Positions 800-4,952 of a stretch of 15,773 bases of DNA are shown piece after piece. The DNA lies in sequence record PV588651.1; one strand, written 5' to 3'. This DNA is from Klebsiella phage AKM-TASP09. A program made the position numbers and the translations under genes. Under the pieces are notes generated by a model. It was not told where the DNA came from. It did not search any database and saw only the letters and a program-made list of their open reading frames with translations. The stretch's first letter is position 1, and each line of letters begins with the position of its first letter.

Positions 800-867
800 C
801 ACTTTTTGTTAAAACGCAATCGGGGTGATGCGCTATCATTACCCCATCGAAACAGAGGAGCATAAAC
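797..867 (+). promoter_or_regulatory. Cassette-boundary element copy B: TAG-CACTTTTTGTTAAAAC (797-815), inverted repeat GGGGT(822-826)/ACCCC(841-845) flanking TATCAT (834-839), leader ACCCCATCGAAACAGAGGAG
   Basis: TTGTTA at 806-811 and TATCAT at 834-839, a 22-bp spacer. The 5-bp inverted repeat encloses the -10-like hexamer. GAGGAG at 855-860, ATG at 868. Confidence 0.7.
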
Positions 868-1080
868 ATGATCGGCAACCATAACAACCCACTCAATTCA
901 GCATTTCACCGTCGCGCGGTAGAGCAACACTTCCACGCGCTGAAGGTGGTTTGCAACGAGATGAATCTTATGCTTGACCTGCCGTCATGGGATGCGCAAC
1001 TGGAAGATTACTATGATGGCCTGCGCGCTAAACGGGATGGCATTATTACCCGCCTGCGCCTGGCTGGTATGTTCTTATAG
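868..1080 (+). CDS. hypothetical protein (70 aa)
   Basis: GAGGAG lies 7 nt upstream and the gene ends in TAG. It is the first gene of cassette B. Confidence 0.65.
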   Translation: MIGNHNNPLNSAFHRRAVEQHFHALKVVCNEMNLMLDLPSWDAQLEDYYDGLRAKRDGIITRLRLAGMFL

Positions 1081-1091
1081 GAGAAACAAAA

Positions 1092-1352
1092 ATGCAACAA
1101 TTCGAATCTCGCGGCAAGACCTACAACCTGCCAGACACCGCTACCCACGCCGCACCTGGTGCATGCGTCGGCTTGTACTTTAAGGATGGCGATAGCTGGT
1201 ACTTCATGGGTGATGTGATTGGGGATGTAACGGTAACGCCGAAGAAATGCGGATTACTCCTGGGCTTTTACGATCACGACGTGGTGGAGTTGAAGCCAAA
1301 GCGCGTACCGTTCGCCTTCTGGAATAAAATCAAAGGGGCGCTGTTCAAATGA
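1092..1352 (+). CDS. hypothetical protein (86 aa)
   Basis: AGGAG at 1079-1083 overlaps the upstream stop, 8 nt before ATG 1092. Confidence 0.65.
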   Translation: MQQFESRGKTYNLPDTATHAAPGACVGLYFKDGDSWYFMGDVIGDVTVTPKKCGLLLGFYDHDVVELKPKRVPFAFWNKIKGALFK

Positions 1353-1567
1353 GCGACCCGAAACTGCAAACGGTATGCTACCGCGATTCGGATGGCGATG
1401 AATTGGTCGTGTCGCCGTTCAGTGGTGGTTCTGCTGGCGTAGAGCTTATGGCGACCCACGATAGCGGTTGCTGCGTATTTGACGACCCGAAGGTAATCCG
1501 CGATCTGGCTAACCAGTTGCTGTCCGTCGCCGATGCCGTAGAGAGCGCACAAGGAGCGGAAAAATGA
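1349..1567 (+). CDS. hypothetical protein (72 aa), Cys-rich
   Basis: ATGA start/stop overlap with the upstream gene suggests translational coupling. Reads as a protein-like ORF. Confidence 0.55.
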   Translation: MSDPKLQTVCYRDSDGDELVVSPFSGGSAGVELMATHDSGCCVFDDPKVIRDLANQLLSVADAVESAQGAEK

Positions 1568-1761
1568 ACCAGTTCGAATATATGCATCGCGCACATAAAG
1601 CGCTTGCCATGTTCGCCTTTCACCTGGATATGAAAGTTATATCCGTGACCATTGAGGCCGGAAGTATTGAGATCTGCGGATTCGTTGGCGATTACTCATG
1701 CACCAGAACTTACACGTTCTCATCGCTCGCCTCCCTGGAGAGTCAGGCTTATGGCTTCTAA
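1564..1761 (+). CDS. hypothetical protein (65 aa)
   Basis: ATGA overlap with the upstream gene. AAGGAG lies 7 nt upstream. Confidence 0.6.
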   Translation: MNQFEYMHRAHKALAMFAFHLDMKVISVTIEAGSIEICGFVGDYSCTRTYTFSSLASLESQAYGF

Positions 1762-1960
1762 CCGCAAATTCAGGATCGTGCGCATTGCGACGCTTGACGC
1801 CTTCGGGCGTCCGGTGGGGTGGTATGCAGCACAGCGGTGTGTTGCCTTCTTCTGGTGGGTGACGGTCGAACACTTCGGCCAGTTGACGCAGGCCCGCTAC
1901 TGGCTCCACAAATCCGGCGCACCAAATCGCCCGGAGCGCGTAATCAAGGTGGTTGAATAG
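1751..1960 (+). CDS. hypothetical protein (69 aa; the ORF-track start 1652 is probably an artefactual N-terminal extension)
   Basis: In-frame ATG at 1751 is preceded by GGAGAG (1737-1742). Starting at 1652 would overlap the upstream gene by 110 nt. The gene ends in TAG 1958-1960 inside boundary copy C. Confidence 0.55.
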   Translation: MASNRKFRIVRIATLDAFGRPVGWYAAQRCVAFFWWVTVEHFGQLTQARYWLHKSGAPNRPERVIKVVE

Positions 1961-2030
1961 CACGAATTGCTAAAACTCGATCGGGGTAGGCTGGTATAGT
2001 TACCCCATACCAACAAACGAGGCTACCACC
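1958..2030 (+). promoter_or_regulatory. Cassette-boundary element copy C: TAG-CACGAATTGCTAAAAC, inverted repeat GGGGTA(1983-1988)/TACCCC(2001-2006) flanking TGgTATAGT (1995-2000), leader CCATACCAACAAACGAGG
   Basis: TTGCTA at 1967-1972 and TATAGT at 1995-2000, a 22-bp spacer. TG at 1992-1993. The 6-bp inverted repeat has a 12-nt loop containing the -10. Confidence 0.7.
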
Positions 2031-3258: not shown

Positions 3259-3434
3259 GCAAGAAAATGATTGCGCTGTATTGGGTTCTTTTCCTGGGTG
3301 GCCTGGTGGTCGCCAAAGAAGATGGCTGGCAAATGATCGGAATGATGATGGTTATCATCGGGGTAAGCCGCCTCTCTGAGATTAACGGCTTCCGCCGTGG
3401 TCGCCGGGCCGCATTCACTGGCGACAAAGAATAG
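3255..3434 (+). CDS. small hydrophobic (2-TM-like) protein, 59 aa, absent from the ORF track
   Basis: Strong GAGGTGA RBS lies 5 nt upstream and an ATGA overlap links it to the upstream gene. Translation MSKKMIALYWVLFLGGLVVAKEDGWQMIGMMMVIIGVSRLSEINGFRRGRRAAFTGDKE has two hydrophobic segments. Ends in TAG 3432-3434 inside boundary copy E. Confidence 0.6.
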   Translation: MSKKMIALYWVLFLGGLVVAKEDGWQMIGMMMVIIGVSRLSEINGFRRGRRAAFTGDKE

Positions 3435-3514
3435 CACTTTTTGTTAAACCTGCCGTAACGTCATTTGGTAAAGTGGCGTTACTGAAGCGAAACAAACCAA
3501 TCAGGAGTTACACC
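3432..3514 (+). promoter_or_regulatory. Cassette-boundary element copy E: TAG-CACTTTTTGTTAAAC, inverted repeat GTAACG(3455-3460)/CGTTAC(3477-3482) flanking TGgTAAAGT (3469-3474), leader GAAGCGAAACAAACCAATCAGGAG
   Basis: TTGTTA at 3441-3446 and TAAAGT at 3469-3474, a 22-bp spacer. TG at 3466-3467. The 6-bp inverted repeat has a 16-nt loop. Confidence 0.7.
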
Positions 3515-3724
3515 ATGAATGACCACATTATCGACCTGTTAAGCATGCTGGCTGAGGATACCGTAGCCGTCATCGAGCTTGAGGACGGAACCGAACTTCA
3601 GATCGAGGTTCCCAGCGTGCGATTCTGCGTATCCGGCGGCGAGCATTCCGAGCGCTCAACCGAAACGGATCTTGACTACGCGACCCACTTACTATGCCTG
3701 AACGCGATCGAGGAGATCCGCTAA
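3515..3724 (+). CDS. hypothetical acidic protein (69 aa; the ORF-track start 3473 lies inside the boundary element)
   Basis: CAGGAG lies 8 nt upstream of ATG 3515. The leader is homologous to that of cassette G. Confidence 0.6.
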   Translation: MNDHIIDLLSMLAEDTVAVIELEDGTELQIEVPSVRFCVSGGEHSERSTETDLDYATHLLCLNAIEEIR

Positions 3725-4158
3725 TGAACACAATCAAACTGAAATGCGTGTCAGTCGAGTCGCTCGTTAGCATCTCCTGTAAGCCTGGCGATATCATCAC
3801 TGCCAGCCGGGATAACGAATTCTCATGCTGGCACTTCGACGGATACTACCTGGATGATGATCTGGTGGTTCGCGGCATATTCGGTGAGTTCGCGCGGTTC
3901 GAGGTAGCGAAGCGCAAGACCGATCGCAAACTGGTGGTTCGCGCAATGTGCATCATCGCCCGCCAGTATGGATGGACTGACGCAGGAGTTAAGCGCGTCG
4001 GCAACTACAAAACCGTCAAGGAGTGGGCGCGGGATTGGGCCGCATTCTACACCGACGAAAAAGGCGAGCTTCAGCACGATATCAGCGAGTACCTGGAGGA
4101 TTACAGTCGTGGCGATGCCGTCCGCGAGTTCATGCAGGCAGAAATCGACGCCCTATAG
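3724..4158 (+). CDS. hypothetical protein (144 aa)
   Basis: TAATG overlap with the upstream gene and GAGGAG 9 nt upstream. The ORF-track start 3694 would overlap the upstream gene. Ends in TAG 4156-4158 inside boundary copy F. Confidence 0.65.
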   Translation: MNTIKLKCVSVESLVSISCKPGDIITASRDNEFSCWHFDGYYLDDDLVVRGIFGEFARFEVAKRKTDRKLVVRAMCIIARQYGWTDAGVKRVGNYKTVKEWARDWAAFYTDEKGELQHDISEYLEDYSRGDAVREFMQAEIDAL

Positions 4159-4229
4159 CACTTTTTGTTAAAACAACCTTCCGGGCCTGCGGTATAGTAG
4201 GCCCACACCAACCAAATGAGGATACTAAA
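4156..4229 (+). promoter_or_regulatory. Cassette-boundary element copy F: TAG-CACTTTTTGTTAAAAC, inverted repeat GGGCCT(4183-4188)/AGGCCC(4199-4204) flanking TATAGT (4193-4198), leader CACACCAACCAAATGAGGA
   Basis: TTGTTA at 4165-4170 and TATAGT at 4193-4198, a 22-bp spacer. The 6-bp inverted repeat has a 10-nt loop. Confidence 0.7.
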
Positions 4230-4874
4230 ATGCTGACCATTAAAACCATTGCTTTCCCGGCACGCTTCTACACCAATCCCGATAATCGTGGCGAGTTCAT
4301 CGACTACAAAGACGACAATTCAAAAGGCAAGTGGTTCGATGGCGGTGAAAGCAATATCCCGCTGGGCTACTTCATTTGCAAGCATAACGTATTCAACAAG
4401 GGCAACGTCCCGGAGCGACCTTACCAGTATGCTACTCTCATGGGATCGGCTATTGCATGCCCAACAATCAAGCAGGCTCTGGACTACGCAGTGGAAACTG
4501 CTCACAACATGTTCGGTCGGAACGAGTCTCGCGGGATTGTGAATCGCGCCATCGTCCACGGCTACGGCGAGCCGCAGGAGTTGAGAATCCTTCCCGGCGA
4601 AATCAAAGCGACCAAGATTAAGGCTGGCGGATTCGAAGTGCGCCGCGACGGCAGTGTGCTGATTAACGATGCTGTCATTCGCGGGGAGGTTTACGCAACT
4701 ACCTTCAAGGAGAAAGATCGTATCAAAGAGCTTGAGGAGCAGGTTGATTTCCTGACTGGTCAACTCGAAGCGGTATCAAAAGCCATGAGAAGCAACGGTG
4801 AAAACGTCGTCACTCACGCCAAGGTGTTGCGTCAAATGGCCGACGCACTGGTTAATATCTGGCGCGGCGAATAA
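4230..4874 (+). CDS. hypothetical protein (214 aa) with a C-terminal coiled-coil-like segment; sole gene of cassette F
   Basis: ATG 4230 is preceded by GAGGA 8 nt upstream. The ORF-track start 4023 would run through the boundary element and the upstream gene. Ends TAA, followed immediately by the TAG of boundary copy G. Confidence 0.65.
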   Translation: MLTIKTIAFPARFYTNPDNRGEFIDYKDDNSKGKWFDGGESNIPLGYFICKHNVFNKGNVPERPYQYATLMGSAIACPTIKQALDYAVETAHNMFGRNESRGIVNRAIVHGYGEPQELRILPGEIKATKIKAGGFEVRRDGSVLINDAVIRGEVYATTFKEKDRIKELEEQVDFLTGQLEAVSKAMRSNGENVVTHAKVLRQMADALVNIWRGE

Positions 4875-4952
4875 TAGCACGAATTGCTAAACCTTCCGCA
4901 AGGGCATTTGATATAGTGCCCTTATTGAAGCAACCAATCAGGAGATAACGAA
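4872..4952 (+). promoter_or_regulatory. Cassette-boundary element copy G: TAA-TAG-CACGAATTGCTAAAC, inverted repeat AGGGCA(4901-4906)/TGCCCT(4917-4922) flanking TGaTATAGT (4912-4917), leader GAAGCAACCAATCAGGAG
   Basis: TTGCTA at 4884-4889 and TATAGT at 4912-4917, a 22-bp spacer. TG at 4909-4910. The 6-bp inverted repeat has a 10-nt loop. Confidence 0.7.

Follow-up and report, generated by a model that had tools for sequence, protein, structure and literature searches.

Seven gene junctions in a 15,773-nucleotide (nt) stretch of the Klebsiella phage AKM-TASP09 genome (record PV588651.1, hereafter the window) combine promoter-like sequences with an RNA hairpin that is evolutionarily maintained on the sense strand. 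Each junction, or unit, is about 75 nt long and lies between the stop codon of a small upstream open reading frame (ORF) and the Shine-Dalgarno (SD) sequence and ATG of the next one. The architecture is a variant of the composite promoter/stem-loop junctions called promoter-early stem-loops (PeSLs), and is newly shown for the T1-like family. We estimate at about 60% the probability that the units are PeSL-type junctions, with a predicted start and activity, in which the hairpin most likely terminates or attenuates the upstream transcript or stabilises its 3' end. The stems covary, differ between strands, occupy two preferred positions and lie among conserved promoter-like features.

The window belongs to the genus Webervirus (Drexlerviridae, T1-like). 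In a megablast search, its bases 1-6000 were 91-94% identical to about 50 Klebsiella phages of this genus, and weaker matches reached 429 records. The same region of the annotated relative PWKp20 is one arm of a divergent block made of small hypothetical genes, followed by terminase and head genes. The motif TAGCAC-N4-TG-N-TAAA, which lies in the upstream box of each unit, occurs exactly 7 times on the + strand of the window (at 230, 797, 1958, 2558, 3432, 4156 and 4875); with two weaker matches the pattern was found 9 times, against 0.79 expected by chance. Related loci (227) were collected from two IMG/VR pattern scans and several GenBank records. The first, loose pattern returned mostly chance single matches, which was mended with a stricter one, and units were kept when the upstream box, a hexamer at a fixed offset and a downstream SD and start were present. 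Collapsing identical segments from -34 to +2 (positions relative to the predicted transcription start, +1) left 235 distinct units from the window and the related loci. A single 78-nt unit used as query matched 802 phage records, comprising T1-like phages of Klebsiella, Escherichia, Shigella, Salmonella, Enterobacter, Citrobacter and Cronobacter and also the 175-180-kb T4-like phages KP15, KP27, RB16, CfP1 and GAP161. Units are repeated about 15-20 times per phage genome. No Rfam family covers them at E <= 1. Two records of about 50 kb carry host labels from outside the enterobacteria that look doubtful: Stenotrophomonas phage BUCT705 matched 68% of bases 1-6000 at 91.9% identity, and Streptococcus phage MBBL140 had a 70-nt unit match only.

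The arms of the stems covary

Folding of the -34..+2 segments gave a mean free energy of -11.07 kcal/mol for the 235 units, compared with -4.49 +/- 0.13 kcal/mol for shuffles that kept the hexamer and G-14; -7 kcal/mol or better was reached by 82% of the units and by 15% of the shuffles. When the 3' parts were swapped between units, keeping the composition of each column, the mean was -6.69 +/- 0.14 kcal/mol. For stems enclosing the -10-like hexamer considered alone, the values were -12.83 kcal/mol observed and -6.82 +/- 0.21 kcal/mol in the swap control. Since much of the energy was lost upon swapping, pairing is unit-specific, which means that the two arms covary. A G-rich spacer and a C-rich discriminator, each kept for promoter function, could look complementary by composition, and column composition alone did shift the stability from -4.5 to -6.7 kcal/mol. 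The observed mean lies, however, more than 30 standard deviations beyond the composition-preserving swap control, and double changes between GC and AU or between GC and CG are frequent, so that this explanation is refuted and retains a negligible probability.

When 52 hexamer-enclosing units sharing a register were aligned without gaps, the 9-bp helix was 92% paired, a percentage biased upward because units were picked for at least 5 pairs in that register, a choice that leaves two-sided changes unbiased. Seven of the 9 pairs changed on both sides (for example GC 27 / AU 22, GC 31 / AU 20 and AU 24 / CG 22). Slid registers were only 37-52% paired, and the covariation score of the helix was reached by none of 500 shuffles. 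Among close variants of unit G, compensatory changes affected both the inner helix and an outer CTTC/GAAG helix that is added to it, the whole spanning 4893-4930 (RNAfold). In the PWKp20 ortholog, GGGCA/TGCCC is replaced by GGCCA/TGGCC; elsewhere G-C became C-G in many phages, A-U became G-C in TLS-like copies, and CTTC/GAAG became CTTG/CAAG. A first-pass annotation of the window had proposed that the arms were selected for pairing rather than as a protein-binding sequence, and had asked if substitutions in relatives would break complementarity. The two-sided changes and both controls bear out the proposal: the arms were substituted in related phages and complementarity was kept.

All five inverted repeats quoted in that annotation were found in place (Table 1). 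They are real, but the 5-6 bp described are only the outer parts of stems of 8-12 bp with energies of -11 to -17 kcal/mol (RNAfold). The stem does enclose the hexamer as claimed, yet the hexamer is not simply looped out: in its 3' half, AGT or CAT is base-paired to ATT, ACT or GATG, and G.U pairs are often involved (RNAfold). Copy D, credited with only 3-4 bp, has instead a comparably good hairpin in the spacer upstream of the hexamer. The imperfection noted in copy A was confirmed, as the substitution G->T at 256 breaks a stem that is intact in 8 related copies (PWKp20 and seven other relatives); comparison with orthologs is confounded for this unit, the window copy itself being the mutant. 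This private change could reflect either a sequencing error or a mutation that arose recently and is slightly deleterious. Arms said to differ completely between copies are indeed distinct in units E, F and G, whereas units A, B and C share GGGGT/ACCCC.

Table 1 Position and composition of the seven units and of their hairpins in the window
Feature	Position	Strand	Description
Unit A	229..304	+	box 229-248; upstream stop TAG 230-232; hexamer TATAGT 267-272; G-14; predicted +1 A 279; ATG 305
Unit A hairpin, weakened	253..283	+	GGGGT/ACCCC stem, 255-259 with 274-278, broken by G->T at 256
Unit B	796..867	+	box 796-815; hexamer TATCAT 834-839; predicted +1 A 846; ATG 868
Unit B hairpin, hexamer-enclosing	822..845	+	GGGGTGATG / CATTACCCC; 9 bp; -14.2 kcal/mol; 3' end at -1
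Unit C	1957..2030	+	box 1957-1976, core GCACGAATTGCTAAA; hexamer TATAGT 1995-2000; predicted +1 A 2007; ATG 2031
Unit C hairpin, hexamer-enclosing	1983..2006	+	GGGGTAG.. / ..TTACCCC; -11.4 kcal/mol
Unit D	2557..2629	+	box 2557-2576; hexamer CATAAT 2595-2600; predicted +1 A 2607; ATG 2630
Unit D hairpin, spacer type (class I)	2576..2595	+	GCCCGGCC...GG-TCGGGC; -10.6 kcal/mol
Unit E	3431..3514	+	box 3431-3450; hexamer TAAAGT 3469-3474; predicted +1 A 3481; ATG 3515
Unit E hairpin	3455..3482	+	GTAACGTCATTT / AAGTGGCGTTAC; 12 bp including two U.G pairs; -15.3 kcal/mol
Unit F	4155..4229	+	box 4155-4174; hexamer TATAGT 4193-4198; predicted +1 A 4205; ATG 4230
Unit F hairpin	4183..4204	+	GGGCCTGC / GTAGGCCC; 8 bp; -17.3 kcal/mol
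Unit G	4874..4952	+	box 4874-4893; hexamer TATAGT 4912-4917; predicted +1 A 4924; ATG 4953
Unit G hairpin	4893..4930	+	inner 9-bp helix AAGGGCATT / AGTGCCCTT (4900-4908 with 4915-4923); -16.0 kcal/mol

Stems occupy two preferred positions

Two types of stem were distinguished. Spacer-type stems (65 of 235 units, mean 7.2 pairs) lie wholly within the spacer and have their 3' end at -12 in 41 cases. Hexamer-enclosing stems (128 units, mean 9.1 pairs) use the spacer as left arm and the discriminator as right arm; their 3' end is at -1 in 68 cases and i+j = -25 is the commonest register. Six of the seven window units enclose the hexamer, and unit D is of the spacer type, its stem ending at -12, the first base of the hexamer, and being followed by ATAATTAT. 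Box, G-14, hexamer and +1 are fixed in sequence, and a stem can therefore use only the spacer, or the spacer together with the discriminator. We read the presence of the hexamer inside a stem-loop as a consequence of packing in a 75-nt junction, and not as a way of presenting the hexamer.

The hairpin is an RNA structure of the sense strand

Sense and antisense strands were compared with and without G.U pairs. When G.U pairs were forbidden, both strands folded equally (-9.9 vs -9.5 and -9.6 vs -9.2 kcal/mol); allowing them brought the sense strand -2.4/-3.2 kcal/mol and the antisense strand only -0.4/-0.6 kcal/mol. G.U pairs made up 51/470 and 140/1170 pairs of the sense folds, against 23/457 and 58/1036 in the antisense folds. 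The sense strand was the more stable one in 191 units and the less stable one in 40 (Wilcoxon p = 6e-25), and the four-base loops of spacer-type stems were GNRA or UNCG in 23 of 32 sense folds and in none of 24 antisense folds. With DNA parameters, the window stems reached only -5.8 to -6.7 kcal/mol. This asymmetry indicates a sense-strand RNA hairpin, since a cruciform would need both strands. A terminator acting on the antisense strand was rejected, as that strand folds worse and has no special loops.

The first-pass annotation had also considered that the hexamer is displayed in a DNA stem-loop, in the manner of a hairpin promoter. Such a device, be it a cruciform, a single-stranded DNA fold with the -10 in its loop like those of N4 or plasmid single strands, or a supercoiling-sensitive promoter, would account for a repeat that brackets the hexamer at a fixed register, and d(GCGAAAGC)-type loops are stable also in DNA. 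It is nevertheless very improbable. The pairing differs between strands, the DNA stems are weak (about -6 kcal/mol), one third of the structured units have their stem wholly upstream of the hexamer, and loops are of 4-6 nt or more, compared with 3 nt in N4 promoter hairpins. Furthermore, the T1-like relative TLS encodes neither an RNA polymerase nor a sigma subunit (PMC11447400). A PWKp20 protein labelled 'sigma70_r4_2' was considered as a sigma factor and discarded; it is a homologue of a DNA repair exonuclease with an N-terminal helix-turn-helix.

Position also indicates which RNA carries the hairpin. Stems end at -12 or -1, upstream of the predicted +1, and an RNA containing the stem must therefore come from upstream. 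This agrees with the earlier suggestion that the hairpin exists only in read-through RNA from the upstream cassette, its right arm ending before the predicted start. The hairpin would thus never be part of the transcript of its own unit.

A probable role at the 3' end of the upstream message

We propose that each unit is a compact PeSL-type cassette junction, a composite of a promoter and a stem-loop. The hairpin would act as a terminator or attenuator, as a barrier to 3' exonucleases, or as both, defining and stabilising the 3' end of the upstream message, and the hairpins would insulate tandem cassettes from one another. Several observations are consistent with this. Hairpins were present in 171 of 196 units in which a co-oriented ORF ends at the box and in 20 of 33 others, the latter being an impure contrast group defined by the lack of a long upstream ORF at the box (Fisher p = 5e-4); this enrichment fits a role on upstream transcripts. 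Stems across related units have 5-14 pairs, and the GC-rich stem of at least 5 bp with a short loop expected of an intrinsic terminator was found. In spacer-type units, a GC-rich stem capped by a GAAA or UUCG loop precedes T-rich sequence (3.35 T in the next 8 nt), much as in a small terminator. A few related units even have a textbook arrangement of stem, TTTT and -10, for example AAAAGCCCCGCGTGGGCTTTTGCTATTAT. In the T1 GenBank record, three spacer-type stems carry the annotation of rho-independent terminator, at 38973-39001, 39998-40024 and 41980-42007; boxes at 38954, 39977 and 41957, respectively, immediately precede them. In the TLS reannotation, terminators T62 and T57 abut repeats DR12 and DR10, respectively (PMC11447400). 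The 'terminator' feature of the NJS1 record was uninformative. No canonical + strand terminator was found in the early region of the window before about 6400, and the stems of the units are therefore the only candidates for 3'-end formation there.

Other observations weigh against this role. At least 4 T in 8 nt followed the stem in 28 of 65 spacer-type units and at least 6 T in none of them. The U-tract expected immediately 3' of an intrinsic terminator stem was thus seen in only a few canonical units. Hexamer-enclosing stems are followed by A/C-rich sequence, with a mean of 1.38 T in 8 nt and at least 4 T in only 9 of 128; in the window these flanks are AUCGAAAC, ACACCAAC or AUUGAAGC. Stems of this type, having no U-tract, may therefore be attenuators, pause sites or 3'-exonuclease barriers instead of classical terminators. 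In addition, 18% of the 235 units have no good stem at the -7 kcal/mol cut-off, and the hairpins of the 20 units mentioned above occur without a long upstream ORF. The terminator assay available for PeSLs concerned the element of another phage. Finally, no RNA-end mapping for T1-like phages (Drexlerviridae) was found in the searchable literature; starts and 3' ends are those that we infer.

RNase III requires roughly two helical turns (about 20 bp) of double-stranded RNA, and many RNase E sites consist of a single-stranded AU-rich stretch located 5' of a stable stem. The first-pass annotation had offered a processing site or a 3'-stabilising stem as the function of the hairpin. The second part, a 3'-stabilising or terminating stem, is the best reading of the data, whereas 5-14 bp of stem fall far below what RNase III needs. 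Cleavage of the polycistronic read-through RNA by RNase E in the adjacent AU-rich box or the A/C-rich leader (or alternatively by RNase III), after which the hairpin would cap the new 5' or 3' end, is unlikely. The AU-rich box (ACUUUUUG / GAAUUG) does lie immediately 5' of the stem, as at many RNase E sites, and a sense-strand RNA signature is what processing would leave. However, matching a protein-binding consensus fully accounts for the conservation of this box.

Somewhat less likely still is an effect on translation. In read-through RNA the discriminator, with CCCC at -4..-1, could pair with the GGAG SD downstream, and the left arm, G-rich and complementary, would capture it so that the ribosome-binding site stays open. 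A C-rich discriminator in most units, a left arm rich in G at -22..-20 and a leader that is otherwise unstructured and G-poor would all suit such an insulator. Spacer-type stems, however, skip the discriminator and yet are equally conserved, with terminator-like tetraloops, and the unit-specific covariation goes beyond G and C tracts. A terminating, attenuating or 3'-stabilising stem remains our preferred reading.

Related composite junctions in other phages and in bacteria

The design is less isolated than the first-pass annotation assumed when it stated that no precedent was described: PeSL cassettes, promoter-coupled terminators of bacteria and the terminator annotations of T1 all came before. 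PeSLs of the T4-type phages RB49/phi1 run from an upstream stop through a strong sigma70-like promoter to an SD and start, with stems lying between -35 and -10 or over the -10; one PeSL stem-loop lowered reporter expression about as much as rrnB T1, and PeSLs mark breakpoints of cassette gain, loss and replacement (Arbiol et al., PMC2839356). They have been called 'composite terminator/promoter sequences' (Comeau et al., PMC4122927). Termination or attenuation of transcription from upstream has been proposed for PeSLs in general and shown for one of them. Like the PeSLs of RB49/phi1, PST and nt-1 (PMC2839356, PMC4122927), the units described here are junctions of about 75-100 nt between small ORFs of plastic early regions; both kinds join a host-type promoter, predicted in the case of our units, to a sequence-variable stem-loop with G.T pairs at the spacer or the -10, and both coincide with breakpoints of cassette shuffling. 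There are also differences. PeSLs reside in T4-type myoviruses, whereas our units are found in Drexlerviridae, though also in T4-like phages. PeSLs have a -35 box and an upstream AT-rich region, in place of which the units have a rigidly spaced 20-nt marbox-like box and an extended -10. Finally, the stems of the units fall into two sharply preferred registers, with the 3' end at -12 or -1.

Promoter-coupled terminators, in which an active promoter raises termination efficiency, are widespread in bacteria (Fletcher et al., bioRxiv 10.64898/2026.08.19.745784). In these as in our units, a stem-loop shares DNA with the downstream promoter of tandem genes, which saves intergenic space, and termination is expected just upstream of the next start; the spacer-type and the few canonical units fit this description. 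Unlike promoter-coupled terminators, which have a T-tract between stem and -10 and a stem doubling as -35 (Fletcher et al.), most of the stems described here abut or enclose the -10 with no T-tract, and an activator-type box takes the place of the -35.

Comparison with PWKp20 revealed a cassette exchange at a unit. The window is 95% identical to PWKp20 up to TATAGCAC of unit F, then unrelated, and the two rejoin about 45 nt before unit G. This break of homology inside the unit F box is a cassette swap, beyond which boxes, stems and genes differ. The F-G cassette (4155-4874) encodes a 214-aa ORF in the window, and an unrelated 250-aa 'Eaa-like' gene in PWKp20 (16128-16950), the last 45 nt or so of the two genes being similar again. 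Unit G (4874-4933) is 96.7% identical in Tunavirus phages of E. coli and Shigella, whose flanking genes gave no match.

Bona fide copies were also present in Klebsiella phage KP15 (Straboviridae; 1162-1250 and 1515-1592). In the copies of T4-like phages (Slopekvirus and Pseudotevenvirus genomes of 175-180 kb), the box is followed at the 18-nt spacing by TATAGT with a stem around it, and the leader is ATCGAAAC. The KP15 record labels the unit 'putative middle promoter'; at neighbouring junctions it places a 'putative terminator' within a feature likewise called 'putative middle promoter'. As units occur in KP15-type phages, the cassette type is common to two phage families.

Promoter-like features of the units

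Each unit begins with the 20-nt box ATAGCAC-NNN-TTG-N-TAAA(A/C)(C/G), whose TAG terminates the upstream reading frame in 144 of 196 related units. Exactly 18 nt separate the box from the -10-like hexamer (22 nt when counted from TTGNTA), which is TATAGT, TATCAT, CATAAT or TAAAGT in the window and whose A-11 and T-7 are invariant by selection. The G-14 of an extended -10 is present in 7/7 window units and in 65 of 74 units overall. Six mostly C-rich bases, the discriminator, follow the hexamer and precede an A taken as +1, found exactly 7 nt after the hexamer in all seven window units and conserved in 65 of the 74; position -1 is a pyrimidine in 71/74. Downstream of +1 come an A/C-rich, G-poor leader, a GGAG-type SD and the ATG. 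A scan with the -35/-10 (sigma70) consensus called none of the seven units, because nothing resembling a -35 lies 16-18 bp upstream of the hexamer.

Two other identities were considered for the box. TTGNTA was rejected as a -35, being 22 nt from the hexamer in every unit, with a negative sigma70 consensus scan. A sigma54-like reading (TGGCAC-N5-TTGCA) was also discarded, since by eye the GG/GC spacing is 2 nt short and the GG is AG. Each unit is predicted to be a sigma70 promoter devoid of a -35 element, with a putative transcription start at the conserved A. Such a promoter would consist of an extended -10, a discriminator rich in C and the +1 A, with the 20-nt box lying upstream in the class II activator position.

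Among the leaders (+1..+13; e.g. 279-291, 846-858, 3481-3500 and 4924-4940), which are rich in A and C and poor in G, a small number of conserved types can be recognised: ATCGAAACGAA, ACACCAACAA and A(C/T)TGAAGC(G/A)A..CCAATCAGGAG. These types are common to distant phages including KP15. They may be unstructured translation leaders, or a signal related to RNase E or Rho.

The upstream box matches the marbox consensus

The box has been reported in TLS as a 21-nt direct repeat, aaATAGCACnnnTTGnTAAAA, located about 76 nt upstream of start codons and also found in T1, Rtp and Rogue1, for which a stoperator, an enhancer site or an UP element was suggested (PMC11447400). These repeats are the same element as the box; the TLS paper reports neither a -10, nor hairpins, nor a marbox match (PMC11447400). 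A full-text literature search with the box sequence returned unrelated primer matches only.

The published 15-nt marbox consensus is gcactaattgctaaa (PMC5684230). The box cores of units C and G, both GCACGAATTGCTAAA, match it at 14/15 positions, those of the other window units at 12/15 and those of some relatives at 15/15, and all seven cores fit the consensus gcannwwntgnnaaa (PMC12052159) perfectly. Columns outside the search pattern were conserved as well (A1 72/74, T11 73/74 and A18 72/74); T12 (74/74) was fixed by the pattern. The box spans -50..-31 from the predicted +1, overlapping the -35 position, and has the marbox consensus on the coding strand, which is the forward orientation. Class II marboxes are forward and centred between -36 and -55 (PMC12052159); that of micF is centred at -41.5. 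Between the core of E. coli micF, GCACTGAATGTCAAA, and its -10 TAGAAT there are 20 nt, a distance kept exactly in 7/7 units. Units resemble micF, a validated class II promoter of MarA/SoxS/Rob, in marbox match, orientation, 20-nt spacing to the -10 and lack of a usable -35; they differ from micF-type promoters in being phage promoters, about 15-20 per genome, fused to a stop codon and an RNA hairpin. Some phage units share CACGTTTTGCTAAA with the marbox of the mar operon (GATGCCACGTTTTGCTAAAT), located upstream of marRAB in E. coli.

This match suggests that the units may be class II promoters dependent on MarA, SoxS or Rob. Pfam revealed no AraC/MarA-type domain in the genes that open either early arm of T1 and of PWKp20, nor in the window 'regulator'. 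Since the two unrelated phage families in which the units occur have nothing but their enterobacterial hosts in common, a host factor is the economical reading. No literature linking the marbox with phages was found.

Two alternatives were examined for the box. As an RNA hairpin (UAGCA/UGYUA), it appeared 99.6% 'paired', which is uninformative since 4 of the 5 pairs are invariant and the variation of the fifth, C/U, is also predicted by the marbox consensus. As a palindromic operator of a phage dimer, it was judged less parsimonious, only 5+5 bp being symmetric and the 20-mer fitting an asymmetric consensus.

An inverted copy of the box (TAGCACGAATCGCTAAA, 1 mismatch) was found on the - strand at about 12986-13005, within a promoter at 12981-13008 (+). 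It fills the spacer between a TTGACC -35 and a TG-TATTCT -10, upstream of a 313-aa ORF (13048-13989) that sits where T1 has its major head protein gene. The same arrangement is seen in T1 (15085, - strand), in TLS DR7 (negative strand, 15044-15024) and in related locus L076. Host promoters repressed by MarA, such as that of rob, have their marbox placed in this way, between -35 and -10. The occurrence of the box in inverted form in the capsid promoter favours a protein site over an RNA hairpin.

Taken together, MarA/SoxS/Rob (RamA in Klebsiella) may drive about 15-20 early or middle cassettes per genome in T1-like and some T4-like phages and repress the capsid promoter, with hairpins insulating the cassettes; we give even odds to this combined scheme. 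One host factor could then switch early genes on and hold the late capsid promoter down. If true, this would explain the repeats left without a function in the 2024 TLS reannotation (PMC11447400).

Implications

Taken alone, the hairpin result shows in the large T1-like family a composite promoter/terminator design already known from T4-like phages, where it flanks small genes that are shuffled; it also adds clean comparative support for the stems acting as RNA of the sense strand. Of greater consequence is the upstream box, which the literature records only as a 21-nt repeat without explanation. Should the box be a working marbox, a very common group of phages infecting Klebsiella, E. coli, Shigella and Salmonella would rely on host regulators for gene expression. 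MarA/SoxS/Rob-type regulators respond to antibiotics, bile salts and oxidative stress, and many phages of this group are therapy candidates; such a dependence would bear on phage-antibiotic interactions and on host range within the Enterobacteriaceae.

Other features of the window

A junction of another type follows the 191-aa ORF at 5786-5866. It has a pair resembling -35 and -10 (TTGAAA-16-TACCAT), then a GCGCC...GGCGC hairpin downstream, and no box. Further on, positions 6866-6931 (+) gave a sub-threshold Rfam match to the Hfq-binding small RNA isrK, with 29.5 bits (E = 0.0022) where the gathering score is 50. The match ends on a strong terminator, AACCCGCTTCGGCGGGTTTTTTT, and may be only that terminator, which lies just upstream of an ORF whose PWKp20 counterpart is annotated as terminase small subunit.

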